Source: Laetmonice hystrix (Eukaryota). From it: 64,000 nt of DNA. A program made the position numbers and the translations under genes. This document shows, in pieces, positions 3,665-57,041 of the stretch. The DNA lies in assembly GCA_965235115.1 (NCBI GenBank), contig OZ249436.1:7690001-7754000 (forward strand), written 5' to 3'. Position 1 is the first letter of the stretch; every line of letters starts with the position of its first letter. Below the pieces are notes generated by a model, which saw only the letters and a list, made by a program, of their open reading frames with translations, did not search any database and had not been told where the DNA came from.

Positions 3665-4326
3665 AACTGGAGATACTGGACAATATTAAGTCTGAGTTGA
3701 AGTTATTTCGAGCTGATCACTCCTACACGTAGCGGTGGCTGCCTATAACTGGAGATACTGGACAATATTAAGTCTGAGTTGAAGTTATTTCCGAGCTGAG
3801 CACTCCTACACGTAGCGGTGGCTGCCTATAACTGGAGATACTGGACAATATTAAGTCTGAGTTGAAGTTATTTCGAGCTGATCACTCCTACACGTAGCGG
3901 TGGCTGCCTATAACTGGAGATACTGGACAATATTAAGTCTGAGTTGAAGTTATTTCCGAGCTGAGCACTCCTACACGTAGCGGTGGCCGCCTATAACTGG
4001 AGATACTGGACAATATTAAGTCTGAGTTGAAGTTGTTTTCGAGCTGATCACTCCTACACGTAGCGGTGGCCGCCTATAACTGGAGATACTGGACAATATT
4101 AAGTCTGAGTTGAAGTTGTTTCCGAGCTGATCACTCCTACACGTAGCGGTGGCAGCCTATAACTGGAGATACTGGACAATATTAAGTCTGAGTTGAAGTT
4201 GTTTTCGAGCTGATCATTCCTACATGTAGCGGTGGCCGCCTATAACTGGAGATACTGGACAATATTAAGTCTGAGTTGAAGTTGTTTCCGGGCTGATCAC
4301 TCCTACACGTAGCGGTGGCCGCCTAT
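3665..4326. repeat. 82-83 bp minisatellite, 8 copies, overlapping the ACSM stop codon
   Basis: Unit aactggagatactggacaatattaagtctgagttgaag...cggtggctgcctat; the last unit's cta (4323-4325) is the ACSM TAG stop. Confidence 0.95.
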
Positions 4327-7300
4327 TCTCGACTCCATTCCTTATTACGAAGCTCTACGCGTCGAGTTTTCAGGCTCACAGTTTTCGGGAGGCTTTCTAC
4401 AAATTCTATCTGTAAAACGAAAAAAATATAACATGAGTAGGATTTTATGATAATCTGCTATTTAATAATTTGTCAAAACGTTGTATAACTTTTACTCTTT
4501 TTCTTCTTATACCGTGAGATTTGACGTATATAATAAAATATATACTAGCCTTGCGTGGATACTTGTATGGGGCGGTGACTTTTTTCACATGGTCCTGTAT
4601 GTCCTTCTTCAAACCTTCTTCATCTGCCTCCCTGTATGCCGAGGCCAGGACGACGAAAGCTTTCACAACCTGAAATGTGAAACCGCATGTCACTTGCATA
4701 TAAACTCTCTTCATGGATCATCCAGCTCTAGGCGGATCCACAGGGGGTGCGCCCCCTTGGGAACATTATTTCCTCTTTTGGCTTGTGTTTTTGTTTGTGG
4801 TATTACTTTTTTTTAATAAGTAAAGTTTCACCCCAAGGATCCACATACACAACAGTCGTTTGAGCTAGGACCTGGGTATGCAGATTCATGAGACATGACA
4901 TTGCAATGCCTTAACTGGGATCACTCCAGACCCATACACTAACCTCGCCTCGGATCCGGTCAGGACTGCTGACCGCTGCAGACTCGACAACCTTAACTGG
5001 GATCACTCCAGACCCATACACTAACCTCGCCTCGGATAGGGTCGGGACTGCTGACCGCTGCAGACTCGACAACTGCTGGGTGTTAGTTACTAACCTCGCC
5101 TCGGATCGGGTCAGGACTGCTGACCGCTGCAGACTCGACAACTGTTACTAACCTCGCCTCGGATCGGGTCAGGACTGCTGACCGCTGCAGACTCGACAAC
5201 TGTTACTAACCTCGCCTCGGATAGGGTCAGGACTGCTGACCGCTGCAGACTCGACAACTGCTGGGTGTTAGTTACTAACCTCGCCTCGGATTGGGTCGGG
5301 ACTGCTGACCGCTGCAGACTCGACAACTGCTGGGTGTTAGTTACTAACCTCGCCTCGGATAGGGTCAGGACTGCTGACCGCTGCAGACTCGACAACTGCT
5401 GGGTGTTAGTTACTAACCTCGCCTCGGATAGGGTCAGGACTGCTGACCGCTGCAGACTCGACAACTGCTGGGTGTTCCAGGAGGGCATTCTCCACCTCAA
5501 ACGGTCCAATACGATATCTGACAACAATGGACACAAGCAGGCTAGAGAACCACTATAGTGCATGAGAAACATAGACTTCAATTTCTCTGAGTTATTGGTA
5601 TTTATATTGGAGTATTTGTACGCATGCACATGGTAAATTCCAGGTCATTCTCACGCTGTATCTGTAAGTTATAGACATATGTATTCAGGTGTATGCCGGT
5701 GGGTGGGGAGGATGAGGCGTCAATTTTCTTTCTCATAGCGCTTTCTTACTTGATCCCGTTGGATCCCCTTACGGCTCTTGCCAGATTTTCCCATTGGATC
5801 CGGCTCTTCAAATCCGCTCGTGGTACTGTGACCCACACATCTGATGGGGGATGCGTGAAAAGTGTGGGAAAATTGAGAGTTGAGTATGCGCATGTTTACT
5901 TATATAATAATGGTTTTGTGACTGTACTTACCCTGCTGATAGGATAACATCGTCGGCACGTCCAACGAACCAAAAATAGCCTTCCTCATCTTTCATTGCG
6001 CGATCTCCAGGAAGGTAATAGTCACCTTTATATGTGTCCGCTGTCTTCTGGGGCTCATCCTAAACAAAATATTCACTTATCAATCTCTAGGAAGGTATGT
6101 GAGTCATTATTATACCTTTCATAACCTGTTGATCTCCAGGAAGGTAATAGTCACCTTTATATGTGTCCGCTGTCTTCTGGGGCTCATCCTAAACAAAATA
6201 TTCACTTATCAATCTCTAGGAAGGTAATAGTCGCCTTTATATGTGTCCGCTGTCTTCTGGGGCTCATCCTAAACAAAATATTCACTTATCAATCTCTAGG
6301 AAGGTAATAGTCGCCTTTATATGTGTCCGCTGTCTTCTGGGGCTCATCCTAAACAAAATATTCACTTATCAATCTCTAGGAAGGTAATAGTCGCCTTTAT
6401 ATGTGTCCGCTGTCTTCTGGGGTTCATCCTAAACAAAATATTCACTTATCAATGTGACACATTATTATACCTTTCATAACCTGTTGATGGGGTTTACCGG
6501 TACTTCAAGTAAGACCTTTAGACCGGTTAGAGAATGTAACGTTATATATAAATTTGTTTGTACGTTTCTGCACATACATACCACATATCTGCTGAAAAGA
6601 CCCACAGGTCGATTCGGGTTGATACGAAGTGCAAGGTCTCCCTCCTGTCCGGCGGCTACCTCATTACCACCTTCGTCAATAACCTGGTACCAGATACACA
6701 ATCAATGAAGCTGGCAACAGAATCACTGCCATAACAATAATGACATGTATGCACAGTATATATTGTGCATTCTATATTTCAAATTGCCGATATATACTTC
6801 AAGTCTGACAATAAAAATAAATATGAGCCTATAGTATTTATAAGGGCATTCATATCTCTAGTGAACTTAACTTGAGAATTCTAAGACTTGCGTCCTAATT
6901 GGTCTTAAACATCTTTCATTAGATCTATATTTATTAGATCTATATGACCTAGGTAAAAAGTCTATATTATTGGACATGCTGAAGCTAAATGGGTCTGAAG
7001 ATATTTTCTATTTAGGATTCACGTTTTCAATGTAAACCAGGTATAAGGTGTCGTTTCTCCTAGACGTGCCGTGGAACACTCACAGTGAGATCCATTCCCG
7101 GGGCAGGTTTCCCCATCGACCCCGGCTTGTTGGGGATACAGCGGAATGACGCACACTGCAGGACCTACAATTACATGGAAGTGATCAATCTGACTCATTC
7201 ATTTATGAATCATGATTGGTCGTATTTATCCTATTTTCTCTTTCTTGAACTGATGATAATTTGACTATAGCTATACAGTAGCGTACCCGGAAGGGGGGGG

Positions 7301-10300
7301 GGGTGCTTTGGGTGCTCAAGCACCCCCCTCAATTTTCCTCTCTTTTTTTTTGGGGGGGGGGGGGGTGTTTTTTTGAGCGCCTACGACGTTGGTTATTTCC
7401 AGCACCCCCTGGGTCCGGTTTCTGGGTACGCCACTGCTATAGTATATATGTAGTATCCGATTTGGAAGGTCATCCTGAACTCACCGTCTCCGTCTGACCG
7501 TACCCCTCTCGGATCACCTGACCAGTACTGCCACACCAGGCGTCAATCACCTCAGGGTTCTGATGGGGCACAATATTGTACAGAAATTACGTAATGAATG
7601 TATGTGGGAGTTTGGCATTAAAGAAGATATGATTGCGTAATTACTTGTAAGGGACAGTTGGAAACTTTTTAGTGGGTTCCTATAGGCATCAAAGAATAGG
7701 ATGGGAATATCTAATATATAGGCCTATACATTATAAAAGTCTCAGGGTATACCGATGGTAAAACAACGAGAAGAAAACATGTGCATAAAATGTCTTTTAC
7801 TGCATGAAGAGAAATGGAATAACTAGACGGTAATGAAATACTATGTGCCTGTAATAAGGATCCTGCAGGAGCTTGGCCACATGATAAACAAACGTCTAAT
7901 ACATTGTACTTATACACCTACCAATGGTTCCCCGGCACTAACAACATGCCTCAAGTTTCTCAGGTTGTATTGAGTAAAGTTCTCCTGAACGAACATACGG
8001 AAGGCCGTTGGAGCCGCGCAAAACGTAGAGACCGGGTATTTCTCCATGGCCTATTCACAGAAAATAAGATTGAATAATACCGCACATCAGATCCTCAAGG
8101 CGTCATTTATAACTCTCGGCGCTGATCGGGGCGCATTGTGTGGCACACTGTAGAGTTCCTGCTAACATTAGTCGTTCTCGTTATTGTAGTTATCGGGTAT
8201 TCTCTATGACAGCGATTTGTTCTGACAGGCAATCATAATAAGGACGAATTGTGCAGGAATGTATACAACACACCTCCATTACTTGCTGAGGTCGGAAAGA
8301 CGTGGTATTCTGGATGAAGACACACGCTCCTTGAATCCAAGGGGCAAACAACGAACTCCAAGCCGACTTGGCCCAGCCAGTATCTGACAGATTCCAGTGG
8401 ATGTCATCATGGTGCAGGTCGAGCCAGAATCTGTCATCAAAGTGATATTCTATATTCGGATCATTTTAATAATCATTTTGAACAAAATAATTAGGCTAAA
8501 TAATATTAGAGCACTGACAAATAAAATTGTCTATTATTCGTCAACGAAACTCTATACACAACAAACACAGAAACTACCTCTGTTAGAAAAATCTATAATT
8601 TCAGGATGGGAGCTTGGAATTTTCTAAGTACGGTCCCTGTTAGCGGCGGTACCTGCCGGTGATGACAGAAGCGAGTCCGTAGCTGGCATGGGTGTGCTCG
8701 GTCATCTTGGGGTCGCCTGTCGTACCACTCGTGAAGAAAATCGTCATTGGTTCGTCACTCCTCGTCTGAACAGCCTGCCATTACAAAACGATGATTTGTA
8801 ATTAATCATAATTATATCCTCGCCGGTTACACCAAAAATTCAAACATGCATAGTCATAAATCATATGTTCAGTGATTAACTGTTCCTCGTGTTTAAAAAT
8901 AATTCTCTGAGCATTTCCTTAAAAGGTAAAGTAAACATGGCCAAAACTACATAATTAAGTGTAGCGTCTGCTACTTGTATATTTTCTACATGTCTTATAT
9001 TTTTACAATGCGCGAGTAGTTTGTACCGTGTGCCCTGGACTCATCTGGTTGTAGAGTTCTGTAAAGTTCTGCCATCCAGGTCTGTCAGAAAATGAAAGAA
9101 AAAAAACGGAAGTTTACGTAATCTGTAAAACTGATATATTAATGACACGTTGTCCATATTTTAACCCTCGACAAATCGAGTTATGATTCTTCTTCATATT
9201 TCTGGTAGGATTTTCCAAAGGATGGCCTGGCAATTACCTTTTCAGGTACGAGTCCTCTGTCACAAGTAGTTTGGAGACAAGGCTCGGGCAGTCTTGCAGT
9301 ACCTGCAGGATAGGGTCATGTTGGGGCTATAAGTCTATTACACCCAATAATTTTCTAATTTTAAAAAAATTAAAAAAAGTTTACACGTGATCTGTACGTG
9401 TCACGTATAAATGATGATTCAGGTTTACAACTGGCACAGTGCATGGGAGAGTTTACACGTGAACTGTGTCACGTATACATGATGATTCAGGTTTACAACT
9501 GGCACAGTGGGAGAGTTTACACGTGATCTGTGTCACGTATAAATGATGATTCAGGTTTACAACTGGCACAGTGGGAGAGTTTACACGTGATCTGTGTCAC
9601 GTATAAATGATGATTCAGATTTACAACTGGCACAGTGGAAGAATGTACACGTGAACTGTGTCAAGTATAAATGATGATTCAGATTTACAACTGGCACAGT
9701 GGAAGAATGTACACGTGATCTGTGTTACGTATAAATGATGATTCAGGTTTACAACTGACACAGTGGGAGAATTACACGTGATCTGTGTCACGTATAAATG
9801 ACGATTCAGGTTTACAACTGGCACAGTGGGAGAGTTTACACGTGACCTGTGTCACGTATAAATGACGATTCAGGTTTACAACTGACACAGTGGGAGAGTT
9901 TACACGTGATCTGTGTCACGTATAAATGATGATTCAGGTTTACAACTGGCACAGTGGAAGAGTTTACACGTGATCTGTGTCACGTATAAATGATGATTCA
10001 GATTTACAACTGGCACAGTGGGAGAGTTTACACGTGATCTGTGTCACGTATAAATGATGATTCAGGTTTACAACTGGCACAGTGGGAGAGTTTACACGTG
10101 ATCTGTGTCACGTATAAATGATGATTCAGGTTTACAACTGGCATAGTGGGAGAGTTTACACGTGATCTGTGTCACGTATAAATGATGATTCAGGTTTACA
10201 ACTGGCACAGTGGGAGAGTTTACACGTGATCTGTGTCACGTATAAATGATGATTCAGATTTACAACTGGCACAGTGGGAGAGTTTACACGTGATCTGTGT

Positions 10301-11501
10301 CACGTATAAATGATGATTCAGATTTACAACTGGCACAGTGGGAGAGTTTACACGTGATCTGTGTCACGTATAAATGATGATTCAGATTTACAACTGGCAC
10401 AGTGGGAGAGTTTACACGTGATCTGTATCACGTATAAATGATGATTAGGACCACTCACTGCATCAACCTTTTCGGCCGTCGTCTCATCTGTAATGATGCA
10501 CTTGGTGTCTGACTTTACAATACGCTTGAGAATGTCTCCTTCCGTCAGCAAGGTTGTGCCAGGAATCAGGACCGTGCCTACCAGTAAATCAATCAGATTT
10601 ACAGTGCATGTCTTCACATAAATGACAGTGCGTACATTCCACCAAAGAAAAACAGATTTTTTTCTGTTACTGCTTATCGCTCTAATGTCCACCAACTGAC
10701 CTGTACGTATTGCAGCCAGGTTGACAAGCCACCACTGAGGGATTCTGGGTAGAAGGACTATGACCCTGTCCCCACGGGTAAGCCCACACGGTCCTGTCAT
10801 GATGTTGGCTACCCTGACAAATTTTATTATTAAGAAATCAGTGGTTCCTCAAGATTGAATGTTGCGCAAGTATAGATGCGTAGATTCATAGTAACAATGT
10901 GTATATACAATGTATGAATCTTCTTGAATTTATTTGTACACATTTCTGTAAAGTCAGAATTCTTTAAGCAGAACCTTTTAGTCTTTTCCACGAGATCGGC
11001 AAAGGTCCATTGTAGTTCATGTCCTGATTCGTCCATCCACCAAAACGCGGGTGTGTTTTTCTTTATATAAAATATATAAAAACAAATGTGCAGACAGTCC
11101 CGACGCCATCGCAAGAGAGTAGAAAATAAGGGCAAAAGCACTTTTACGAAAAGGCCAATTGCCTCCAATTGCAAAATCTGATGAAGCCTGTATTATTATA
11201 TCAAACAGAAAGCCTAATGCATGTCTAATTGGTTCACTCCAAGGAATCGGTACACTATGTAAGATAACAACTGGCTGACCTTGTCATACTGGGCCCATCG
11301 TTCCACAACATCGGTCACAAAGTTAAAGTAGTCAGGTACATCAATCTTAAATGTAGCCTTCTCAGCCTCATAATTATTGAAGCCGATGGCTGAGGGTGCG
11401 GTGGAGTATGGCGAGGCTACCGTTCTGAGAAACACATCATCAATTCTTCTGTTCAAAGTTCGAAGAAGAGGAATCCTCTTTGTTAGCAGTTTCCTAAACA
11501 T
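4323..11501 (-). CDS. ACSM3: Mitochondrial medium-chain acyl-CoA synthetase (ACSM3/ACSM4-like), 16 coding exons, 586 aa
   Basis: Exons (minus): 11501-11280, 11060-10975, 10813-10701, 10577-10459, 9302-9238, 9081-9027, 8774-8653, 8430-8274, 8050-7922, 7559-7485, 7164-7084, 6683-6582, 6059-5932, 5517-5418, 4669-4550, 4409-4323. They total 1761 nt and all splice phases are compatible. Motifs: Arg/Lys-rich presequence [30 protein letters not shown] (P-loop), [65 protein letters not shown]. The paralog number cannot be resolved; an alternative in-frame ATG lies at 11534. Confidence 0.93.
4911..5475. repeat. 58-82 bp (mostly 69 bp) tandem copies of the 3' end of ACSM exon 14 plus its splice donor, 8 copies
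   Basis: actaacctcgcctcgg (minus strand CCGAGGCGAG|GTTAGT) occurs at about 4938, 5020, 5089, 5147, 5205, 5274, 5343 and 5412. Confidence 0.95.
6002..6453. repeat. 80-bp tandem copies of the ACSM exon 13 splice acceptor plus exon start (4 extra copies and the real one)
   Basis: catcctaaacaaaatattcacttatcaat (minus strand ...TTTAG|GATGA) with the acceptor G at 6060, 6189, 6269, 6349 and 6429. Confidence 0.95.
7276..7436. mobile_element. Short hAT-like MITE with G/C homopolymer interior
   Basis: Imperfect TIRs cagtagcgtacccggaa / ttctgggtacgccactg; no clean TSD. A related element lies at about 29465-29605. Confidence 0.55.
9378..10447. repeat. 64-bp minisatellite, about 17 copies, filling ACSM intron 4
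   Basis: Unit agtttacacgtgatctgtgtcacgtataaatgatgattcaggtttacaactggcacagtgggag; the array stops about 11 nt from the donor at 10458. Confidence 0.95.
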
Positions 11502-11916
11502 CCTTGCTTGAGACTTAGAAAGATCGAGGATCATGAACGTCAAGCCTGTAGCATTCTGAAAAATAGATTTCAAACAATAACTTTGAATAAGGAAAAAATT
11601 GGTAGAGCCTATAGACCTAGACTATACGCAATGCATTAGGCCTATATAAAGTTGCACGGCAGTCACGGCAAATGCCGTGACCCCCCTTTTTTGCTGTGAT
11701 GCAAGTTTTGCCTCTAACCACATTTTTGTGACAAAATGTGACAGGGGGTGCTGTCATCGTGAGGTCACTAGAAATAGTGCCCTAATCGGGAGGGAGGGAG
11801 GGACGGAGGGAGGGTGGGTCTCCGGAAATTGTTAAAAATTAGAAGTTGATTCTTCGCTCAACGGGTTCAAAACGGCGGGAATGCTTAGAAAATATCGCTC
11901 CACGGGTTCAAAACTA

Positions 11917-17664: not shown

Positions 17665-17831
17665 TGGGTTGGCTACCCGACTACTTGCCTATCTGACATC
17701 AGCCTGGCCCAGGTAGCGCACAGCGCGGTGAACACCTGTTGAGAGCCCGCGTTATTTTTACTGTTAGAAGCGCCATCTGTTGAAGGTAAGGTGCCCCCCC
17801 CCCCCCTGGCGACCAACATTGGAACTACGTG

Positions 17832-17843: not shown

Positions 17844-17853
17844 TAGCGTCAAA

Positions 17854-25375: not shown

Positions 25376-25807
25376 AATTTCCATTCACTACGAAGCATTA
25401 TAGAGCTTCCTGGTGATAGTTGGACACATTGTTAAATGACAACATCCACTCATGTTTGCAAACAAATATGTATCAATATATTATATTGATACTCCACCAA
25501 TCAATTTCTGTTCATTGACTGCACGTAGAGACGATGAAGAAGCCGTTGTCCATTACTAATTGCTGTAAATGACGTTACTGTATAAAATAAAATAAAAAAG
25601 AAATGGCAATACTGTATGTTTTAACAAAATAATTTTTGGCCAAATATGGGATTCGTTTAGAAATTTAGAGTCATGCATGAGTAAAAAGAAATGTTTGATT
25701 TTTACCCCATGAATGTGTAGCCAGTTTTAGAATCATTATGTACTTGATGACACACGTACACAGAATATCTCGAGAACAATCTGTGCTCATAATTCCTGCA
25801 AACATAT

Positions 25808-29859: not shown

Positions 29860-29892
<33 letters not shown>

Positions 29893-41800: not shown

Positions 41801-44800
41801 CAGCCATAGACGGGGTCTGTGACCTTGAAACATCCCTGTGTTAGGACCAGGAGTCCTCTCCTGGGTCATTCCATGTGAAATCACCCAATTTTCAGACAAA
41901 TCCCATAGTGATAGTCTTGGATTTGCTTCAAATTTTTTTGACATGTTGCCTGTGGTGCCAAATGAAAACATGCCAAGTTTACCTCATTTTCATTTATAGT
42001 TTTTTTGTTATAGGGGGTCAAAAAAGTGGGCGTGGCTCCTTTTATCGCGACAAAAATGCTGCCGACAGATTTACTCCCATCTTTAACAAACCATAGCTCA
42101 GGAGCTATCAAGGATATCAACTTGATTTTTTCAACATAGATCCTTCATCATGTACTCTCTTGTTGGCAGGTGTCAGATTAAAATTTAATCAAGTAGGAGT
42201 CAAGCAATTATCTGCTACATTTAAGCATTTTTCTGACGAAAATGAAAAATTGTCACATTTCAGATCAGCTTTCCCCCATACCTCATAGGATGAATTGAGT
42301 TTAGTTGTTTCTAAATGATACTACAACTAAAGGGCTTCCTACAGTAACAAATGCAGTTACTTAAGATCAGTAGTTTTTTGGCAAGAATAGCAGGTACCGG
42401 GTCTCAGCAGGAAAAAAACCCTATTTGGGCCCCTTTTTTGAAGATGTGGGTATCCTTCGATTTTGATAATAATTATATCATCAGAAAGCCCTTGATGTGT
42501 ACCATCAACCTACCTATTTTCATTGTTAAACTAGGACCCTTTCATCTTGAAAAAAAATATTGATTTTTAAAAATAATGACACATTTCGGACGTCATCATG
42601 CCCACCATGATCTTTCAAAGATAATACTGAAAACACATTACTATATGCCTATTTTCAGTGTGCAACTAGTACTCTTTCATTTTGAAAAAAAAAATTACTG
42701 TATTTAAAAATTTTGACATTTCGTAGGTCAGGTCTGATAGTGATACCCTGTAAAGAAAATTCCAATGCACTGCTAGATCAGCACTATTGTAGTTCATTCA
42801 TATTTCACTAGGTGGCAGGCCAATCAACAGAAACTGGCAAAAAAGTGGGAGCACATTCTAATTACAGGGTTGCCAGACAGATTCCAGATTGAAAATAGGC
42901 ATGGTGACAGTACACATCAAGGGAGCACCTTCTGATGATATAATTATTATCAAAATAATTTGCATAGGAATGTGTTTTCAGTATTATCTTTTGAAGATCA
43001 TGGTGGGCATGATGACGTTCGAAATGTGTCAATATTTTTAAAAATCAATATTTTTTTTCAAGATGAAAGGGTGCTAGTTTAACAATGAAAATAGGTAGGT
43101 TGATGGTACACATCAAGGGCTTTCTGATGATATAATTATTATCAAAATCGAAGGATACCCACATCTTCAAAAAAGGGGCCCAAATAGGGGTTTTTTCCTG
43201 CTGAGACCTGGTACCTGCTATTCTTGCCAAAAAACTACTGATCTTAAGTAACTGCATTTGTTACTGTAGGAAGCCCTTTAGTTGTACTATCATTTAAAAA
43301 CAACTAAACTCAATTCATCCTATGAGGTATGGGTGAAAAGCTGATCTGAAATGTGACGATTTTTCATTTTCGTCAGAAAAATGCTTAAATGTAGCAGATA
43401 ATTGCTTGACTCCTACTTGATTAAATTTTAATCTGACACCTGCCAACAAGAGAGTACATGATGAAGGATCTATGTTGAAAAAATCAAGTTGATATCTTTG
43501 ATAGTTCCTAAGCTATGGTTTGTTAAAGATGGGAGTAAATCTGTTGGCAGCATTTTTGTCGCGATAAAAGGAGCCACGCCCACTTTTTTGACCCCCTATT
43601 AAAAAAAAAACTATGAATGATAATGAGGTAAAACTTGGCATATTTTCATTTGGCACCGCAGGCAACATGTCAAAAAAATTTGAAGCAAATCTGAGACTAT
43701 CACTATGGGAGCCCTGGGTGATTTCACATGGAATGACCCTCCTGTCATCATCACGAACTGCAGACTTAAGCCGCTTTCACATGCATACGGTGTGCGGCGT
43801 GCGGCATGCGGCGTGCGTTTTTGTTAATAATGTAGCCAATGTAAATCGCCGCACGCCGCAAACCGGAGACATGTGAACGGTTATATCTATTTTCAGTTGT
43901 TCCATTTTTGCAAAAACGCACGCCGCACACCGCACACCGCACACCGTATGCATGTGAAAGCGGCTTAAGAGCTGTAGTATCGTGCGGGCCCCCTACATTT
44001 ACTAAGATTGGCGTCTTGCCTGATCTAGGATTTGCCTCCACTTCAATGCAGCTATGTGACAAGCTGGCGAGGTTAGGTTCCTGGTTGTCAATTTCAGAGA
44101 GACTCCGAAAACACTTATATTATATTAATGGTCTGGTACTGAGGTATTAGAATTTAGGCATTAATATTGTCACTAAGGCTCACACACACCAGGGTATCGA
44201 TTGTGATGCCAATGGTAACGCCTTAGTAAATTCCTGTACAAAGACCTCTTTTTTCACTTCATGAGTCACATCAAAGTATGGGCTGCTTTATGAACTCATC
44301 ATTTTAGCTATACATAAAATGGGCATTTCCATGAGTGAAAATAACAATCATCTAATTGGAATGACTATGGCCCTTAGCGCTCATTGACCTTTCCATGGGT
44401 GACTACTAGCAACACTATAGTGTTTCCAGTTGCCCGTGGCAACATGACGACCTGTGTGAGAGTACGATCCTGCCGGATACAAATGGCCCCCTGTCACGGA
44501 CCCCTACATAACACCGACTTGACATATTGAACTACTTACCTGGGGTCATGGAGCGGAACTTGTTATAGTACTGAGACACATACGTCACAATGCAGAGCTT
44601 GTCCGGCACTGCCATGGCAACCATGTCCTCAGCCTCCAGCAGGTCGGGAATGTCCAGCTCCTCTTTGGCGACCTCGAATGCCTGCGAGCAGAATCACCAC
44701 ATCTGATGATGAAAAAAATAGAACCAAGGCAACAACACCTTGGGCTACTGAGTGTAAGATTAAATATATATCGTACTGTCTCCGGCCTACGACAGATATA

Positions 44801-47800
44801 TGGCCTGAAGGTCATATTAAACACTCGGCTTCCTTCTGAGGCTGCACGGGGTGGGTGGGTGAGGGGTGGGTGGGGCTGGGGTGGGTCATTGTCAATAGGG
44901 TCGATAATCGGGGGAAGAGGTACCTACGGCAGGGTTTCTTGCAGGCCCTTTTGTGGGGGAGACTCCCCTACTATTCAGCTACTCCCCCAAAAAAATTTCT
45001 CGGGAGAAATATTTTGCATTACTCTCTCCCCCGCCCCCAACTCGCACCCCCCCCCCCCAAGTCGAAAATCTCCAGGAAACCCTGCATGGTCTACTTCCAT
45101 CAGAAACTTCAGAATGGAGAAAATGAAATACATTTTGAGGGGCAGTTCATATACTATGATGTGTTGGTGGTGGGTGAGGTGCGCATAGGTACACAGTGGA
45201 AGACGAGCCAGCTTTTTTACATGATGAGATGCATGGGCAGAGCCAGGAATTTTGGAGGTGGGGGGGGGTTACCTGCTACAAGGGGGGGGGGGGGGAGGAA
45301 CCTACTCCTGCCTCTGGAAACGTTTGAATCTATCAGTAATCGTCCAATTTTAAGTTAGTCTGCAGAAAGAACGTGGGGAGGTTAGAGGGGGGGGGGGCGC
45401 CTACGAGAAGGCAAACAAGTAGGTTAGCTGTACATTATTGAGTCCTCAAACAACTAAGTCAGTTTTATGAGGTGGGAAGTCAAACAAACAGGTTCGCTGT
45501 ATGACGGAAGGGAAAGTAAACAAGTAGGTCATTTATGTGGTGTGACCGACCAGCGATTATTTATGTGGTGTGACCGACCAGCCATTATAGAGTTGTACCG
45601 ATGCTGGGGAGATATCGTTGTAATCAGGCAGGATGATATATGGTCTGTTGCCTGCAGATTTATTACTGGATTGGTAGAGAATGATACGGATGTCGATTGC
45701 CACTATATTATTGTATGACCCATTATGATACTGTGGAGGATTATGGCTACTGCCATTCAATTACCACACTGACCAAGGGTACGCCAACCTATAACAATAC
45801 GGGTATGTGATATCATACACTGATCACCTGACCCTGCAGATAACCGGAATCATATGTTTTCTTACATCACGGTAATTCTGACTGACATTCCGCAGCTAAA
45901 TGTCATTCCAGCTTGCCAGGTTCAATAATCGTTGATGATCTTCTAAATGATCTCAAATGGCGGAACAGTTTTAAAACTTTCATCATCAGATAGTAATAAT
46001 GTAATAAAACAAACGGTCGTCTTAAACAGAACCATTTCATTTGAATCGCCTGGGACAGCAACTCCATAGATTTTAATGTCTTTTTACTCAACAAACCCCC
46101 CTTAATGTTTTATCTGCAGCTGCAAAGTTTCTCTTGCCCGACACAGAACACTAAATAATGCTACAGTAGGCCTTAATTCACTTACCAGTTTATTATTTTC
46201 GTAGACATTCTCTTTGGACAGGGAATCATAATCTCTGGAAAAAAAAATTATGTCTCATTAATACGATAACATAAAACAAATACGACCAGTGTCAGTGTTA
46301 GTGGTCTAATAAATTATACGCCTGCCTGATAATGCCCCTTCTGGGGTCACATGTTATAAACTGTGGTGCTACAGTAAGTTCTAAGTCGTATGACGCACAC
46401 ATTCTCAATCACAGGCAATTATTTAACAGCCTTATCAACCACCGTATCAAGGAAAATAATCATGATACTAAAAGCGGGGAAAAACAGCAAACAAGAAGAC
46501 AATAAAGAAATATCAATTCATAGTAATAAATCAGGATGAAAGAACTGGAAGTACCCCCGGTAATACTTGGGGGTACTTGCAATGAGTGAGTTGTGTAAGG
46601 ACCGTACATGAGGTTACATGTATTCTCATGTGCCAAGTACTTGCAGTGAGTGAGTTGTGTAAGGACCGTACATGTGGTTACATGTATTCTCATATGCCAA
46701 GTACTTGCAGTGAGTGAGTTGTGTAAGGACCGTACATGTGGTTATATGTATTCTCGTGTGCCAGTACTTGCAGTGAGTGAGTTGTGTAAGGACCGTACAT
46801 GTGGTTACATGTATTCTCGTGTGCCAGTACTTGCAGTGAGTGAGTTGTATAAGGACCGTACATGTGGTTACATGTATTCTCATGTGTAAGTATAACCTGA
46901 TTGGTTGATTGTCAGGTAATTGAACGTCTATTATGGGCGGTCCTGCTTAATGGCCCTGTGAACGACTGGTATTTCCATGTTAATGACAGCTCACAATCCA
47001 ATGACGGTCATTCGATCACAGTTGGGGCACGTTATGTAATGTGGCCCCATGGCAAGCTTTAACATCAACACGGAAACAAATAAAAATACCCGGACAATCA
47101 CACTGAACAATTCCTGCCCTAGGAAATGGAATTTTTCTTTTTCTTATGCAATTATATACTGGCCACAAAACATGTACGGGTAATCATCTCTTTTTTTCGT
47201 TTTCTTTAGGATTTAGTTTATCAAACCAGGATTAACAGAAGTGTTACTCCAAAAAGGTTTGTTTGTCGCGGCTGGTTAACAAAATGACCAGTTCTCATCC
47301 ATAATGCATGATGTACAAGAAAGAGTTAACCAATGCACTCCCTAGAATCCTGGTAGCAGTCTAATCAAGGAAAGATCTGATTATCCCATATCAGATCACC
47401 ACGACAAACAAAACATTGAGCCACAATTTCTACCATGCCAATCCTGCCTTTCACAATGCGGGACGACAGGAGACCTGAAGGATATACAACTACCGACCCT
47501 TTCTATGGATTAATCAGACCTTTCATAAAGTTGCAATGACTTGGCGTGTACTTTGACCCGTCTCTGCGAGGAAGTTGATGATAGCGCAGCTCCTGCCTCC
47601 GTTCTTCCAATATGTTCACCTTTCCGGCAGTACACATGACGTATACACGACCACCCCACCTTGACAGTTATTACATGTTCCCTTTACATTTATTGGCAGG
47701 CAGAAATAAAAATGGCAAGAGTCTCGCAGAGTGTGAGCAGTACAGAGTAAAGAACCTGGAGCTAATTCCAAGATGTTTTTATCGAGACTGCAGTCAGAAG

Positions 47801-50800
47801 TCTATATCGCACGGTGACCAATTCTCACGATGCGGGCAGAGGTCACCCAGCTTTGACCTCTCTGGCATACAAGTATCCCCTTTGGCTCGCCAATGCGCCG
47901 CTTTCCACAGATTCAAGGGACACACAGAAATCCATGAACCCAAGAACATGATAGTTAGACACACGGATCACGCTGACGCCTGGGCTTCAAAATAAAATAA
48001 AATTTTCAATCTAGGATTTGGACAGGGCCAGAAGTGATTTTTCTGAACAGATACCATTGAGAAATCAAAAGATGAATCATGATATGCTACATGTTTTCGG
48101 ATGAACCACGTCAGGGCTTAGTTTGAAAAAAAAATTACGATCTTGCTTAAGCTTATGCTTAAAGCTTCCGACTGGCTGCTTGCAGGAAACCCGGCTATCA
48201 GAAGATTTAAGCTTAAGTTTACGCATGACCTTAAAGTTTCAAAAACTGGGCCCTGGTGTACTGTGAAACCTTGGCGTCATCCGCCTGGATCCATACACCA
48301 TGAAACACAACCTCCGCTCGAGGCCACGGTCAGGCAGACCACCAGCCGAGGCTGGAGGCACAGACACCTCATCACTGGGTGACTGAGCCCTGACCCTGCA
48401 CTGACCGGAGGATTGGTCACGCACTGGGTACGTACGTAGGCGGTAACTGTAAGCCCACCGTACGAGGGTAGCGGCCAGACCTCATGAATAAACCTCCGTG
48501 GGCACATTTACATTAGTTCTCTACACGTAGACTCATGTCAAAAGTCTCATGTACCATAACACCTTCTTAAAGGGGCACCAGGAAGAATCGCACTTTCCAA
48601 CGGCTTTTTAAAACATAAAAAATTAGGGTGAAACCCGTTGTCTTGGCCGAGAAATGGCATAACTTCCAACGGGGTCACTTGGGGTCACGCCAGTCACTCG
48701 AAAAAGTGTACCCCTTTAAAGCAGAGTACGGTGGGAGTGTTGTTCCCAACTTCAGTTCCACTCCAAAATAACTTCCTGCCGTTCTATAATTTCCTGATAA
48801 ATTGGTTACTTTCTAGTACCCCGCTTCCTATTGTAACACAATCCGTTGACACGACATTCTCGGAGTCTGATTTAAGGATCCAACTGACGTGCGGCAGGAA
48901 CATCCGACAAGAAAATCCTTTCACTGTTTCAGGAACTATACCAGTCAAAAACAGCAACCAGAATAAATCACTAGAAAAGAAAGTCGATACTTGTACCTAA
49001 TCTTGGCCTGCAATATAAGGGACTGAAATCGATGTGGCCACGTAGAATTCTAAAGACCTCTAGGGGAAAAGTGGTTTGTGACCAACTCAAAGCACTCTAT
49101 GGGGATGAGAATGGGCGGTGGTGGGACCATGAAAGGGTTGAGGTGGCTACAGACTTACACCCCCTCCGGCAGATGGCGCTGCCCTCGGCGGTAGACATAC
49201 CGATACAGTGACCGAGACTCGGTCCAGTGATTGGTAGTCCGCCTATGGTCTCAGCCAGCGTGACTCACCCTACCATCGATACACCCCATCGTCGGAAGTT
49301 CATCTTGATAGAATTTTAATTTCCTGAATTAATAAAGATACAGATATCTAAAAATGACTTTGCTGCACTAAAAATGGCATAACTTTTGATTCGCTTGACT
49401 GATTTTGATAAAATAAAGACTGTTTTTCATGTAAGAAGATTCCCCATCAGGATCCCCGGAAACATAGATTCTTAGGTTGTGTTCATTTAAAGTCCCTTTA
49501 AGGGTATCGATTCTTAGGTTGCCTGGTTATTTTGAGAATATTTTCATCAAAATACAGACGGAATGAATGGGTTGATGTTATCCTTTACACTGATTACAAT
49601 TCACAGCATCACCACGTGAAACAGAGCAAATAATCCCTCAATAATACTGATCAGTTTTTGTGACACGCTAATCAAAATGGTGCCCCCCTACCGCATAAAC
49701 CGCTTTACCATGTTTACTACCGCCAGTAAAATTTCCCATGTCACTGATATTGAACAGCGGGAGCCTCAGGCCTGAATTATGTCAGTAATTGAAGGTGCAT
49801 TAGCGATGTTGTGAAGGTCACGTTCAAACAGCACTTGCGCCTTCATACATTTGAGGTCTCCCATCAGCATGTTATAAATTGATTATCACAAGGTTCAACG
49901 GTAAAAGGTTTGATGATTTTTTAAATCTGTCACACCGGGCCTCTGTAGTTCCTCATCCTGAAATAACACAATCACTTTCTCCTAATAGAGTTCGTGATCC
50001 AAATCAGCAGTTCGACTTGGTCAAGAATACACGATGTGCCATACGATGATACAGGGAGCTTGGGGCCCACACATGAAGCAAGGGTAACTGGTCAAGAATA
50101 CACGACGTGCCATACGATGATACAGGGAGCTTGGCGCCCACACATGAAGCAAAGGTAACTGGTCAAGAATACACGACGTGCCATACGATGATACAGGGAG
50201 CTTGGCGCCCACACATGAAGCAAGGGTAACTGGTCAAGAATACACGACGTGCCATACGATGATACAGGGAGCTTGGCGCCCACACATGAAGCAAGGGTAA
50301 CTGGTCAAGAATACACGACGTGCCGCCATACGATGATACAGGGAGCTTGGGGCCCACACATGAAGCAAGGGTAACTGGTCAAGAATACACGACTGCGTGC
50401 CATACGATGATACAGGGAGCTTGGGGCCCACACATGAAGCAAGGGTAACTGGTCAAGAATACACGACGTGCCATACGATGATACAGGGAGCTTGGGGCCC
50501 ACACATGAAGCAAGGGTAACTGGTCAAGAATACACGACGTGCCATACGATGATACAGGGAGCTTGGCGCCCACACATGAAGCAAGGGTAACTGGTCAAGA
50601 ATACACGACGTGCCATACGATGATACAGGGAGCTTGGGGCCCACACATGAAGCAAGGGTAACTGGTCAAGAATACACGACGTGCCGCCATACGATGATAC
50701 AGGGAGCTTGGGGCCCACACATGAAGCAAGGGTAACTGGTCAAGAATACACGACGTGCCGCCATACGATGATGCAGGGAGCTTGGGGCCCACACATGAAG

Positions 50801-53800
50801 CAAGGTACTGGACGAGTGGTCCGCCCAGGGCGCAGACATACCCCCCCCCCCCCTCCGCCCTCGTCATTGACGTCAGCGGTCAACTTATCGGAGTGGTCAT
50901 CTTACAGATTTTGGCCATCTCACAGCCACTTGAAGCCGAGTACACCTATACCGATACGACTCAACCAGACAACTAGGTTTTATGCCTTAAAAACTGCCCT
51001 CGACTTCATTCAACTGGACTTTTGAGGCAAAAGAAACTGTTGATTTGATTTGAGTCGAGTCGGATCGGTACGTATATAACTCCTTCCCCGTCCTTCTTCG
51101 TCCTGAGGCCTTGACACACTGGCCATCTTACAATTAGGTCAAGTGCTGCAAGTTTCTGACAATTTCACAGGCTTCGCTCTCATTTCGCAAGTCACGCAAT
51201 GCTGCACTTCCCAAAATGCGTGCTTTCATTATCTGCCTGCAGCATTATGGCCTACATTTCACCAACAATTAATTAATAAATTGTTGAAAGAGAAAATAAT
51301 AAAATTCTCCATTTTCGCATTTTCTGAGCATAATTCTTCATGCTTCATTTCGTCCTCTGGCATCAGTCTTAATTAACTGGCATTATCGAAGAAGCTGGCA
51401 ACATGGCCTTAATGTTATCCGAATAAATTACCGGGTAGATTTTTCCCTTATCCTGGCTATTGGCAGTGGGATACGTCTTCGTTTGGTTGCTGGCATATCA
51501 CCAAAAATCCTAAAGGATCCGTATGAAATCTGTGTCATGAATACCATTACCAGGTTAACTCTTGACGAATAATAATCCTATTGCTGAACTCTACAAGAAT
51601 CATATACCAACAAAACAAGTTTTTTTTTTAAATTTAAAAGTGAAGTTAAATCGGTCGACAGCCAGCGCCAGACAGGTCTTTAACATTTTCAGACTGGAGA
51701 TAAATAACCCGGTTATTTCCTTCCATATATTGTTGGCATCAGTCATATCTGACAGGCGAGCGCTTCCTGAACTGCAGACTGTGGAGCTGCCTCCATTAAA
51801 GTAAATCCGCCTGATTCCGATGATAGTCCATCCCTGGGATCACCCCCTTCCTCCTGGCCTGCTGTTTTTGTGTGCGTGTCTGGTGTTGCCTCGTCTGGAG
51901 CTAGGACGTTGATTACATCACATGGTATGTTGATCTCGAGGAGATATCAAAATGCTACCTTTCTTTTTTTGGCTCTCAGTCTCAATGTCATGCGGCTAGA
52001 CAGGGACGGCTGCACGATGCGGCATACCAACACAAACAGCCATGCTCATTAGTAACAGTATTTCAGTTGGCTAGACAATAAACGCATGACAGCACAATGC
52101 AACATCATTGTATTCATTCCATATTGTCACTCCGGTCACAGGCGAACAGGTTCTTTTACTGCTACTGCCATCATCGCTACCGCTCTCACATAACGTCAGG
52201 TTTGTTACGATTATAAGTCATAACCTGGCCGCCCCCATCGACCTATTTTACTTCACTATTCATTTCTATTTTAATTTAAGAATTGAAGAAAGACGCACAA
52301 CGACATGCAGTGCCAGTTGATGTTTCCCTTCCCTATAGCCTGGAGTCACCCCAACCTGCCCGTTCTGGTGCCCAGAGCTGGTTTTATTCCAGTGTTGGTT
52401 ATCCCCAGATCTCAAACACGTACAGACACACCACGTGATCCTACCCTATATTATTACTAAAAATGTATCTCTATTTCTAGATCCAACCCAACTTTAACCT
52501 CTAACAGCAGACCCTTTGAACAAAAAGTTCGCTATCACTGTCCCGACAAATATCTCCTACCCTGACTCCAAATTTCGTGGTTAAGTTACCATGGGGTTAT
52601 ACCCCCACAGTGCCCTTATTGAGATCAGTGACCTAGCAACATGTCATGTGTGACACGCTGGAGGTCGTGTGTCAAACACGGAGATATATACAGCCACCTC
52701 GGAGCCCGACAGTGCCTTCCCGCCCCCCGTCCCACCGGCCGCCCGCCTCCCGTCGCACCGGCCGGCCGGCCGCCAGCCTCCCGTCCCACCGGCCGCCCGC
52801 CCGCCCCCGTCCCACCGGCCGCCCGCCCGCCTCCCGTCCCACCGGCCGGCCGGCCGCCCGCCAGCCTCCCGTCCCACCGGCCGCCCGCCTTCCGTCCCAC
52901 CGGCCGGCCGCCCGCCCGCCAGCCTCCCGTCCCACCGGCCGCCCGCCCGCCTGGCGTAGTATGCGTGCCTCCCCGGGTCGGGGGGAAATAGGGCACTCAC
53001 GGACAGACACACATCACCTCACGTCATAAATAATTCTACGCAAGATCCAAGATCTAAACTGGGGTCTTAACGCTAACACCACACCGAAACAGGGGGGAAA
53101 CACCCGTGATTCCGCATCTTTCAACACTGCATAAGAACCCTTAGAAGAACTAATATTTGAAAAGGCCAAGCTTTTTTTATGGCATGCCATCGGCATGGCA
53201 ATGGGCACCAGCGAAAGTAAAGTTAGATATATTGATCAACAAAGGATGCAGTGTAGCGTGGTGAAATAGGAGAATCTGGTGTGTTTATAGGATATGAACA
53301 CGTCACCTGCTGTCTGTTTGATGTGCAAGTATTGCTGAGTGGTGATAGATGTCCCACGTCTAAGGATGTACCAGATCCTCTAACTTAGCCTGCATGTCCT
53401 GACTGCATGGATCACAGGAGTTCCAGGTAAGGATGCTACATTTGAAAGGGAGGAGGCAGGGGAAGCTGGAGAACCGTGTGTTCATCAATGGGCAAGGTTA
53501 TTCGATCAGAACGACTAAGAATAAATGGTACTATGGGGCCTGAAGCCCCCCCCCCCCCCCGCCGCAACCCAGCAACCCCCCCCCCCCTCCCCCGCCGCCA
53601 CCCCCACACCCCTTCCCCCGATTTCCCGCTCGCCATAATTCTACAGTGATCTGGAAAAACCTATATATAGTACGTTAAGTTTTTGTCCAATTTGAGTTAG
53701 TCCCATTTTTGGACTTACTAGGTTTTGCCCTTTCATATAGTCCTATACAAGTGATCAGAACTCTAGGCAATTCATAGTTCTTGACCTGGAAAAAAACTAG

Positions 53801-56800
53801 CGTTTGCAGCACCTCAATGCCAGGGATGGTTTGTTTGTCTCAGTTTTCTGAAAATGAGGGAAAGTGGACTTGCTAGGTTTTTCCCGATCACTGTAGATAT
53901 GTCCCAGATAATGTCATTTGTGCACGCTCAGCGTTACAACTCGTAACAGCTATTTATCGTGGTAGAAGAACGTGGCTGCCTCCGGACATTTACCAGAATA
54001 ACCACTAGCGGGGGGGGGGGGGGTGTCATGTCAAAGAATGAAGTCTCGGTAAGGCCGGCGTTAACAATCTGCTTATCCTGCAGGTCTCGGGCGTTTTTTT
54101 AACATTTCCCATTTACAATAAATTTTTTAACTACAGATGATTAATGCCAGGGTACATAAGAAACGAGCGTCGTCCCTCCTCCCGTCTGAGGGCGGTGGGA
54201 ACCATACTAACAGAATGCATGCCAGACATCGGATGATGTTTGAACATAGGCGTACCTTAAAGTCATTCTCCTGGCACCGATCACATCGATTTTCCTCACA
54301 CCTGCCATGAGAAGACCGCGGTGACATTCTCACAGATCGTGGAGGAGGTCGGTCTACAAAAACTGACAGGAGTGGAGGGAAACAAGAGAAACGCCGCCAT
54401 TCTGGCATGTCGCGAATCTAAGCAAAACTCGCCTTCAAAAGTTCCTTTGCCTATTGTATAAGATTGTTTTGAAACGAACTCCCTGTACATATATTGTCTC
54501 GACCTGGCCCAAGGCGGTATCATTGTTCAGTGCGGGGCGCTTATTGAACGCCACTCACACAGTCAACTTTATGGCCCTTCTCTACAACTTTATGGTAACT
54601 GTTGACACGACATGGAACATCTCCAGTATACTATCAGATTCTTCAGGCTTCCTTGTTATCATTCCATTCTGTGAGAATGTTTGAAGGTACCAACATAACT
54701 GATATGAATGACGACACTTGCAGACTGACAGACAAAAGCCTCTGATATATATATGGATCCAATAAAATGGCATGCACTGCCTCGGAGATTTGTAAGACCG
54801 GTAAATGCGTAGGTGTTTTTCACTATTCAACTGTTACTAGTACTGATTCGCTGCTTCACGTTGTGTGGAGATTTGCAGAATCAGCTAGACGGTCTTGGTG
54901 ACCCTGATTGGGTGTGACCAACACGTCATGTGACTACCGGTAATTTTCAATGAGTTTCAGTTTCATATCATCCGCGTGCGTGTGACTCGCCACATGTACT
55001 CTCCCATGTACCGCGTGCTGACATTGAGGATCTGGGACAGAGCAATATACAGGTTCCACACAGGTCGCTGCGTCCCGTGTTACATGATCTTGACCACTTT
55101 TTGACCAGGGGTAAGAATGATCCTTAGCTCCACACCTGGCTGTTCGTAAGAGGCAACGAATGGGATGAGGGCTGGTTGAGTCTTGGATCCTTCCAGTACC
55201 ATTTCTCGTACTGGCCCTCTTCAGTGCTCCGTAACTGGATCATCAAAGGCGTGTCTAAAACAAGCATGTCCAAGCTATACCTGCGCGAATGGACATAGAA
55301 CCCTGCTTTTCCAATTTTCGAAAAGAGTAGGGGATTGCCACCCGGTGGAGGGTTTCTTTCCCCCTCCGTCCTCATCACCTCCCCGGGACTCTGGAAGGAA
55401 GTTATCATGAGTGAACGAGTGTGACGGTTTTATTCTTCCTCACTCACTCTTGACCAATCTCCAGTGCCCATCTCCATGCAGCAGACAGTAACACCATACT
55501 GATGAAACCAGGCTCCTGTTTCTAAAACATGATGTCCGTAATCAGCGAGCTAATTCGTCTCTCTGCTTAGTTAACCCTAGAAATGAGTTATTTTTAACCC
55601 ACTTGGACTTTGAGGAAGAGCCTTGCTGACACAGCACCGTTCAAAGAGAGACCTATCCTATTTTTGGGAAACTCCGCTATGGAAATCACCAGGATACAGG
55701 CACGATAAACCAGTGGCTATAAACTGGTGGTGGTGGGGGTTGGGGGAGTGGGGGAGGGACGAACACTAGCCCATAGCCTCCTCCTTTTAGTCGACGAACC
55801 TACATAAAACGGTCTTACTTGACTGCCCAACCCCTTGACAGATTTTCCATTTCACTGCATTGCCCCCGACCCCATCGTACCATTCCCTTTGTGACTTTTT
55901 AAATACCTGGTCTGAACAGTTTTGGTGCCATGCTGGTTGGAGCTAGCCATCTAGACTGACCTTTGATCCCAGTCCGGACACACTGAAACCAACATTCTTG
56001 TTGGTATTGAACATATAAGTTGAAGCAAATATTGGTAGTCAGATCAGCAGTGTACCCGGTACCTTTCGAAGCTGATCTTAAATATATTACAACTTGGCAA
56101 TAGCTAAAGTATTAATACAGCAATCAAGTAAATATGCCACCACAAAAAAAACAAAAAAGAAAAGAAAAAGGAGGAAAGAAAAAAACCTGTATCTCTCACA
56201 GGTGGAAGTTCTTCCAGATAGTATTAGTAGAATGCTAGATGAGTATTGCAGTGTCATTGGCCACTCACATGAGGTCAGGACGGTATCGGTGTATCACTTA
56301 CATGAGGTCAGGACGGTATCGGTGTATCACTTACATGAGGTCAGTACGGTATCGGTGTATCACTTACATGAGGTCAGGACGGTATCGGTGTATCACTTAC
56401 ATGAGGTCAGGACGGTATCGGTGTATCACTTACATGAGGTCAGGACGGTATCGGTGTATCACTTACATGAGGTCAGGACGGTATCGGTGTATCACTTACA
56501 TGAGGTCAGGACGGTATCGGTGTATCACTTACATGAGGTCAGGACGGTATCGGTGTATCACTTACATGAGGTCAGGACGGTATCGGTGTATCACTTACAT
56601 GAGGTCAGGATGGTATCGGTGTGTCACTTACATGAGGTCGGGACGGTATCGGTGTATCACTTACATGAGGTCAGGACGGTATCGGTGTATCACTTACATG
56701 AGGTCAGGACGGTATCGGTGTATCACTTACATGAGGTCAGGACGGTATCGGTGTATCACTTACATGAGGTCAGGACGGTATCGGTGTATCACTTACATGA

Positions 56801-57041
56801 GGTCAGGACGGTATCGGTGTATCACTTACATGAGGTCAGGACGGTATCGGTGTATCACTTACATGAGGTCAGGACGGTATCGGTGTATCACTTACATGAG
56901 GTCAGGACGGTATCGGTGTATCATGGCGCAGAATGCGAGCCCACTCTTCCAGGACGACGTCATGTTGGTGACGTTGACGTCCCGGTAACCCTCCACCTGC
57001 GCCTTGCACCATTGTTGTAACGCTTTCACCTTATGAGCCAT
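25990..57041 (-). CDS. MICALL1: MICAL-like protein (MICALL1/2 family): CH domain, half-LIM, Pro/Ser-rich linker, bMERB coiled coil; 10 coding exons, about 1488 aa
   Basis: Exons (minus): 57041-56896 ([13 protein letters not shown]...[24 protein letters not shown]), 46234-46186 ([16 protein letters not shown]), 44681-44540 ([42 protein letters not shown]), 39920-39808, 36142-32735 (3408 nt), 32566-32449, 30303-30127 ([22 protein letters not shown]...[13 protein letters not shown]), 29829-29715, 29310-29264, 26141-25990. They total 4467 nt in frame. CH + LIM + bMERB without a monooxygenase domain defines MICAL-like. An acceptor at 57084 implies an upstream non-coding exon. Confidence 0.9.
26510..26701. 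mobile_element. Short hAT-like MITE; second family member at 44930-45084
   Basis: TIRs cagggtttgccgcagg / cctgcaggaaaccctg; the related copy has cagggtttcttgcagg / tccaggaaaccctg. Confidence 0.55.
26705..27650. repeat. About 94-bp minisatellite, 10 copies, in the last MICAL-like intron
   Basis: Unit ctgatccagagtagtgatattctacatggtctacactgtgataactcaatcactaagtacccagcaaccagttcattgagtaagtataggctca. Confidence 0.95.
29154..29263 (-). CDS. Candidate alternative C-terminus of MICAL-like by intron read-through (Trp/Cys-cluster tail)
   Basis: Frame stays open past donor G|GTATGA at 29263: [36 protein letters not shown]. Confidence 0.4.
32300..32448 (-). CDS. Candidate alternative C-terminus of MICAL-like by intron read-through (tail-anchor transmembrane helix)
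   Basis: Frame stays open past donor G|GTATGA at 32448: [49 protein letters not shown]. Confidence 0.5.
40770..41370. repeat. 102-bp minisatellite, about 6 copies
   Basis: Unit aaccactcatctacagccttccgggagcaacctaataatatctatggcactactcgggctcactccaat...gacatcactgatca; it explains the repetitive ORF at 40813-41415. Confidence 0.95.
41863..43739. mobile_element. Non-autonomous DNA transposon with about 775-bp inverted arms, GGG...CCC termini and 4-bp TSD TCCT (Sola2-like signature)
   Basis: tcct|gggtcattccatgtgaaatcaccca ... tgggtgatttcacatggaatgaccc|tcct; arms 41863-42639 and 42969-43739 are near-identical inverted copies (mirror ORFs 42351-42563 + and 43045-43257 -). Confidence 0.9.
43770..43964. 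mobile_element. Palindromic MITE flanked by TTAA, Harbinger-like termini
   Basis: ttaa|gccgctttcacatgcatacggtgtgcgg ... ccgcacaccgtatgcatgtgaaagcggc|ttaa. The superfamily is uncertain because the TSD reading is ambiguous. Confidence 0.85.
46573..46886. repeat. 63-64 bp minisatellite, 5 copies
   Basis: Unit gtacttgcagtgagtgagttgtgtaaggaccgtacatgtggttacatgtattctcgtgtgcca. Confidence 0.95.
50017..50806. repeat. 71-74 bp minisatellite, 11 copies
   Basis: Unit ctggtcaagaatacacgacgtgccatacgatgatacagggagcttggggcccacacatgaagcaagggtaa. Confidence 0.95.
52715..52952. repeat. GC-rich degenerate tandem repeat
   Basis: Variable-length units built on ccgtcccaccggccgcccgcc; source of several overlapping Pro/Arg/Gly-rich ORFs. 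Confidence 0.85.
53644..53893. mobile_element. Tc1/mariner-type MITE with TA TSD
   Basis: ta|cagtgatctggaaaaaccta ... taggtttttcccgatcactg|ta. Confidence 0.8.
55125..55400 (+). mobile_element. Nin/Deu-domain SINE remnant
   Basis: catagaaccctgcttttccaattttcgaaaagagtagggg...gggtttctttcc resembles the conserved Nin/Deu SINE central domain (recognised from memory, not searched). Confidence 0.4.
56263..56922. repeat. 33-bp minisatellite made of the end of MICAL-like coding exon 1 plus its splice donor; 20 donor copies
   Basis: Unit tcacttacatgaggtcaggacggtatcggtgta, which reads ...CCTGACCTCAT|GTAAGTG on the minus strand. Donors recur every 33 nt from 56895 to 56268; the last one is GTGAGT. Confidence 0.96.

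Follow-up and report, generated by a model that had tools for sequence, protein, structure and literature searches.

Why should tandem repeats inside animal genes come to lie across the very sites at which coding sequence ends, and does such a position serve gene expression or reflect what selection lets pass? The question is raised by a stretch of 64,000 nt from Laetmonice hystrix (GenBank assembly GCA_965235115.1, contig OZ249436.1, positions 7,690,001 to 7,754,000 of the forward strand; called the window below, with position 1 as its first letter), in which five arrays in two genes straddle a splice site or a stop codon. Most likely they are neutral exon-edge minisatellites which a genome dense in repeats produces and a survival filter has shaped; a duplication bias toward coding edges, a regulatory use of the duplicated sites and an error of assembly are the alternatives that have to be weighed. 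Four animal genes lie within the window:

601-969, minus strand: unkempt-like gene, two exons (PF18384)
4323..11534, minus strand: gene for an ACSM-type medium-chain acyl-CoA synthetase, 16 coding exons, 597 aa (gene model with open frame)
17854..20379, plus strand: UPF0193 (C22orf23-like) gene, 7 exons (gene model and profile match)
25990..57041, minus strand: MICAL-like gene with CH and bMERB domains, 10 coding exons, 1489 aa (model with open frame; PF00307, PF12130)

None of the gene models contains an internal stop; all acceptors are AG and all donors GT, save for a single GC donor at ACSM exon 15. ACSM exon 8 shares 71% identity with proteins of Ridgeia and Lamellibrachia, the matches being named ACSM3, and the joining of exons 13 and 14 in one read-derived contig supports the model of this gene. 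A bMERB exon of the MICAL-like gene gave nine matches, the best named relatives being from Capitella teleta (83% identity) and, at 69%, from Ridgeia piscesae; such matches point to an annelid as the probable host. A Pfam search with an 81-aa piece of this gene that carries a LIM-like motif returned no match.

Arrays were detected by running Tandem Repeats Finder on the window, which returned 80 rows. Set against the gene models, they place five arrays across coding boundaries at the sites, and with the copy numbers, given in an earlier note on this DNA: 8 at the ACSM stop, 8 at the exon 14 donor, 5 at the exon 13 acceptor, 20 at the MICAL-like donor and 4 at the MICAL-like stop. They are listed here together with a sixth array close to an exon:

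3665..4326, minus strand: ACSM stop array, 83-bp unit in 8 copies of 82-83 bp (Tandem Repeats Finder and gene model)
4909..5476, minus strand: ACSM exon 14 donor array, the real donor and 7 copies, with units of 69, 58 and 82 bp (repeats, model and contigs)
6003..6486, minus strand: ACSM exon 13 acceptor array, the real acceptor and 4 upstream copies (repeats, model and contigs)
9378..10446, minus strand: ACSM intron 4 array, 64-bp unit in 16.6 copies (Tandem Repeats Finder)
25807..26022, minus strand: MICAL-like stop array, 54-bp unit in 4 copies (Tandem Repeats Finder and gene model)
56262..56923, minus strand: donor array of the first coding exon of the MICAL-like gene, 33-bp unit in 20 copies (Tandem Repeats Finder and gene model)

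The ACSM stop unit consists of the last coding base, the TAG and 79 bases of 3′ UTR, its coding part thus amounting to just 4 bases; the MICAL-like stop unit takes in about 10 last codons with the TGA and runs on into the 3′ UTR. At exon 14 the real intron starts at 5417 and the donors are spaced by 69, 69, 69, 58, 58, 69 and 82 bases, the array being composed of a 69-bp unit, a 58-bp deletion form of it and a separate 82-bp unit. Exon 13 starts at 6059, with decoy acceptors at 6188, 6268, 6348 and 6428 (spacings 80, 80, 80 and 129); here an 80-bp unit of 23 intron and 57 exon bases is accompanied by a second, longer duplication of about 114 bp. The outermost acceptor copy is set apart by a difference at exon base 6. 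Both ACSM splice arrays thus hold two unit types with differing breakpoints. The MICAL-like donor unit has 26 exon and 7 intron bases and a spacing of 33 throughout. The splice arrays have units of 33-82 bp and young copies that match at 92-98% (Tandem Repeats Finder). The intron 4 array is a near miss; it begins 13 bases from the exon and its unit contains no splice site. A 2.8-kb stretch of short introns contains all three boundary arrays of ACSM.

Repeats of this type have been described before. In the available part of one report, “mirages” are tandem repeats across exon-intron boundaries in the amphioxus genes for Adh3 and the globins BflGb6 and BflGb9, with units of 10-160 bp, normal splicing and allelic length differences; their origin is there termed unclear, and a model of intron gain is drawn (PMC3087553). 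The accessible portion of another adds troponin C and PGBD5, again with undisturbed splicing (PMC3902484). As far as these sources can be compared, the arrays at the splice sites resemble mirages in having a unit over an exon-intron boundary, on the donor or the acceptor side, and in occurring in several genes per genome. Three of the arrays have a head-to-tail unit across the exon-intron boundary of the host gene, a repeated GT or AG and highly identical units of minisatellite size, and at the two ACSM junctions one contig, likely of RNA, is spliced regularly at the authentic site. The host is different, Laetmonice hystrix instead of amphioxus, and while allelic variation in copy number is a feature of the amphioxus mirages, the arrays here are known from one sample. 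The units of both stop arrays span no splice site, which places them outside the definition of mirages in the text at hand; we file them as 3′ UTR-edge minisatellites.

The other published precedent is human. According to the part of the source that was at hand (PMC1557585), the minisatellite of F7 intron 7 has a 37-bp unit of 4 exon and 33 intron bases, and its pseudo-donors are functional yet unused, the most upstream site winning by a scanning that was demonstrated in mammalian cells; pseudo-sites are likewise unused in LMNB2 and PDGF, where only the first donor serves, whereas two pseudo-sites are used as well in 6-16 and in CBS intron 13. The donor arrays described here share with these cases, as that source presents them, a first unit that spans the donor and is followed by identical pseudo-donors, and ACSM exon 14 uses its first donor in the contig, as do F7, LMNB2 and PDGF; F7 units are mostly intron, whereas the units here are mostly exon. 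In the features tested, the three splice arrays fit a published kind (mirage or exon-boundary minisatellite). Intron gain from tandem arrays has reportedly been treated by Zhuo et al. 2007 and Gao and Lynch 2009; the likeness lies in duplicated splice signals as raw material, while in the present case there is no new intron or exon and each decoy path ends in a stop. That such arrays may feed intron gain, as had been suggested for this locus, is plausible and already published for mirages, as the available part of that report shows (PMC3087553). A literature search for genome-wide enrichment of repeats at exon edges or stop codons, which left most subscription journals outside its reach, found no paper by title or start of the abstract.

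The claim that only the copy beside the intact exon keeps the frame holds. GT or AG is intact in 30/30 decoys (7/7 at exon 14, 4/4 at exon 13, 19/19 in the MICAL-like gene), and upon translation all seven exon 14 decoys and all four exon 13 decoys met an in-frame stop; in the MICAL-like gene, where 4 of 19 decoys were translated, the stop sits at the first donor and hence on the path of every decoy. Reading through the first exon 14 donor adds three codons before a TAA at intron positions +10 to +12, and at the MICAL-like donor it halts at once, as the phase-2 donor itself gives TAA. Among donors of the window, a stop is found at the first read-through codon in 6/9 phase-2 donors and within 12 codons of read-through in 19/32 donors. 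Stops on decoy paths therefore need no design: they follow from array geometry, donor consensus and intron composition. When a donor is duplicated, the first copy sits on the whole exon and intron bases lie ahead of each later copy; when an acceptor is duplicated, it is the last copy that retains the whole exon. The copies of a stop codon lie behind the real stop and have no decoy role. At donors the units include 6-10 intron bases; the acceptor unit includes 23, among them a word, some 21 bases away from the exon, which we take to be branch-point-like. Such lengths would be close to the minimum that the original site needs in order to work, as a survival filter predicts.

Read-derived contigs bear on both the reality of the arrays and the choice of splice sites. 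They came from four runs (X1-X4) of one sample, whose animal may be the one assembled, and the comparison covered positions 5385-6160, a stretch with exons 13 and 14 in which both ACSM splice arrays are represented by their edges. In the three genomic-type runs (X1-X3, intron covered), contigs have loose ends at the copy junctions, at 6003 in 3/3 runs, at 5465 in 2/3 and at 5409 in 2/3; both ACSM splice arrays are present in the reads. It is extremely improbable that the arrays are artefacts of the assembly. In favor of an artefact one may say that the contig comparison reached two of the five arrays in a single sample, possibly the assembled one; these loose ends argue against it, and so do the substitutions and deletions by which the copies differ in nested patterns. 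At 6113-6160 there was contig cover in 0/4 runs, but such a hole proves nothing, and summed contig depth climbs over the duplicated units, contig depth being no measure of copy number.

Run X4 is likely RNA, judged from its spliced contig, the run record carrying no RNA label. This contig (863 nt, depth 24) contains exons only and skips the 414-base intron 13 exactly. Beyond 6060 it continues into letters of exon 12, so it was joined from the acceptor at 6059, and before 5415 into letters of exon 15, so it was joined from the first exon 14 donor; the loose ends were matched by eye. The majority ACSM message thus likely uses the innermost exon 13 acceptor and the first exon 14 donor. No decoy isoform appears at the two ACSM junctions of this single spliced contig, in which rare forms would be invisible: contigs drop them, decoy products would be masked as their stop-bearing messages decay, and low decoy use is compatible with the data. 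The 230 letters of X4 before 5415 fit exon 15 to its GC donor, exon 16 and a contig end that falls exactly 30 bases into the first stop-array unit; if the stop array lies in the 3′ UTR, this would be the expected branch point of a 31-letter assembly graph. The exon 13 piece of X4 differs in one letter.

These data bear directly on the proposal that decoys are used and that copy number sets how much of the message goes to nonsense-mediated decay. The decoy sites are intact and identical to the real ones, splicing to any of them would place a premature stop ahead of later junctions, and minor use of pseudo-donors in human 6-16 and CBS, as recorded in the accessible part of that source (PMC1557585), favors such a role and by analogy counts against neutrality. 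Yet the sole spliced contig runs unbroken through both junctions with the original sites, the stops are those expected from donor consensus and intron composition, and arrays over stop codons are unable to act as decoys. We regard the regulatory role, as put forward in the earlier note, as unsupported and very unlikely, while a bias at stop codons is possible.

How far the positions themselves depart from chance was asked in the window. Merging of Tandem Repeats Finder rows by hand, with periods below 20 dropped, left 23 arrays of 11,378 bp in total, or 17.8% of the window, which bears out the very active local duplication that had been proposed; one period-24 row off any boundary (31294-31339, 1.9 copies) was excluded, and a “clean” set of 15 arrays was picked after the data had been seen. 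Within the window no array lies at the edges of the UPF0193 gene, which was counted as part of the background. The companion proposal, that only straddling events survive inside genes, fails, for 11/16 arrays in the spans of the ACSM and MICAL-like genes cross no boundary. For the tests, each array was collapsed to one unit, and it was counted how often the unit contains any of 70 coding boundaries (63 splice sites, 3 stops and 4 starts) under four nulls (uniform, gene-conditioned, circular-shift and local-jitter). For all kinds of boundary together, five were straddled versus 1.25-2.4 expected (P 0.004-0.047 across nulls). For splice sites alone the numbers are 3/63 versus 1.1-1.9 (P 0.10-0.28 under the four nulls), for stops alone 2/3 versus 0.05-0.19 (P 0.011 or lower, post hoc and with three sites), and for starts 0/4. 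All these P values are optimistic, since it was the pattern that led to the choice of this window and the kinds of boundary were separated only later. The excess over all boundaries is due to the two stops; at the scale of the window, an enrichment over random positions is seen for boundaries taken together and is not significant for splice sites, and of the suggested bias of duplication to exon edges there remains the post hoc result at stops. Taken singly, ACSM has 3/4 straddling arrays (P 0.27), and any array in this exon-dense gene has a 42-51% chance of crossing a boundary; the MICAL-like gene has 2/12 (P 0.10). Two other properties of the units gave nothing: in units that straddle no boundary, GC is not in excess (P 0.25 with one G-rich unit excluded), and hidden donor-like words occur in 3/10 of them versus 2.9 expected (P 0.60).

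It may be that coding exons and their borders receive more founding duplications than introns do, and that these become visible only at the edges, mostly at stops, where there is no cost to splicing. The contrast between stops and the splice sites and starts points that way, as do the start of the sixth array 13 bases from exon 4 and the fact that each ACSM splice array was founded twice. Set against this are the mere three stops, the post hoc split in a window picked for its pattern, the overlap of the ACSM stop unit with those 4 coding bases, and the lack of a significant excess at splice sites or in either gene by itself. We hold such a bias to be unlikely; a preference of new duplications in this genome for coding edges, with minisatellites at stops many-fold above chance, is correspondingly doubtful.

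The junctions between copies share 2 bases in the 80- and 33-bp units, 1 in the 82-bp unit and 0 in both stop units, the ACSM one being blunt; in the 69-bp unit the junction holds a filler of 4 bases which, read with the three bases after it, is the donor hexamer inverted (by eye). Short or absent microhomology and a filler agree with repair of breaks in which a templated filler is now and then inserted, unequal exchange coming afterwards. For neutral arrays under a survival filter, a history of the following kind may be proposed. A stretch of 30-115 bp would first be duplicated by break repair, with 0-2 shared bases or the 4-base filler, and then be amplified by unequal exchange, probably between alleles too. 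Units entirely within coding exons would be purged. A donor array would survive if its unit has the whole donor (6-10 intron bases here), which leaves the first site intact, and an acceptor array if its unit reaches from branch point to AG (23 bases here), in which case the copy beside the whole exon would work; an array over a stop would cost nothing. The original sites would be chosen by first-donor preference, as in human F7, together with exon definition, and leakage would be removed through decay of stop-bearing messages.

The neutral reading as a whole is probable on the strength of the array density, the overlap with splice sites near chance, the splicing seen in X4, the short or absent microhomology, the lack of an excess of GC or donor-like words in non-straddling units and the like behavior of published cases; since the contig that is likely RNA was spliced at the original site in either junction examined, the arrays are likely harmless. 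Against it count the excess over all boundaries under every null, driven as it is by stops, the double duplication of each ACSM splice site with differing breakpoints, the preservation of GT or AG in every decoy (though the copies are nearly alike and young), and an RNA support that comes from one contig of one sample and two of the three splice arrays.

The locus thus offers clean extra examples of a published type of repeat with a small piece of transcript evidence, a donor and an acceptor array each spliced at the original site. The acceptor array is the more useful case, as four intact upstream acceptors are bypassed for the one beside the whole exon, a choice that would be easier to reconcile with exon definition, or with removal of decoy products by decay, than with scanning for the first AG. 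If the excess at stops were true genome-wide, duplication rate would be tied to gene structure and the origin of mirages could be tested by counting; a true preference for coding edges would amount to a mutational bias as yet undescribed for mirages, and the genome would provide hundreds of natural duplicated-site experiments on splice-site choice in an invertebrate.

The copies also hold a hint of their exchange. The comparison of variants took in 45, 57 and 26 exon bases per unit, and of the exon-derived substitutions 6/11 are synonymous, with 5/7 in ACSM (P 0.03 at an expectation of 24% and 0.12 at 33%). The copy variant 5430 A>T has about half the single-copy depth in 2/3 runs of the one sample, contig depth being no copy number, and intron 13 is clearly heterozygous in the contigs. 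Given the synonymous substitutions and the heterozygous intron, copies may carry alleles of the real exon through exchange between homologues.

In the gene model of the ACSM-type medium-chain acyl-CoA synthetase, exon 15 is closed by a GC donor (GCTAGT) at 4544-4550, and the length of the contig from X4, a read run that is likely RNA, agrees with splicing at this donor. Comparison of the last exon (4323-4409) with the Lingula and Ridgeia proteins places SLKT where these have SGKI, the lysine being retained; the motif is, we assume, the lysine motif of the adenylation step, and the activity of the enzyme may be changed.

Read-derived contigs from the same gene separate two haplotypes, between which approximately 120 bases (5498-5620) contain 5 substitutions as well as one deletion of 4 bases; heterozygosity is high in this stretch. 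At 5988, a contig of the genomic-type run X3 is common to part of exon 13 and then continues into letters absent from the window, a search of which for these extra letters returned one two-mismatch match only, that is, chance level; the contig is a piece of exon 13 either from elsewhere or from the other haplotype. One array lies beside exon 4:

9378-10446, 64-bp unit in 16.6 copies, starting 13 bases past ACSM exon 4, with the donor outside the array

The Ridgeia piscesae matches to ACSM and to a bMERB exon of the MICAL-like gene carry locus tags four apart and lie on contigs of equal size, which suggests that the neighbourhood of the two genes (4323-57041) is conserved there; in human, too, MICALL1 presumably lies close to C22orf23 (UPF0193).

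Within a MICAL-like intron, a long inverted repeat seen by eye (41850-43730; approximately 41850-42720 mirrored at approximately 42900-43730) is probably a foldback-type transposon. A 44-bp array (57450-58167) expands from a stretch that may resemble a short interspersed element widespread among invertebrates. A 39-bp unit occurs as a single isolated copy 2 kb away from the 23-copy array of this unit (60685-60720 and 62650-63548); short motifs recur in this region, giving it a mobile-element-like look. By eye, the G-rich arrays are bracketed by an inverted pair, similar to the inverted repeat of the MICAL-like intron, at approximately 14600-14960 and 17320-17660.
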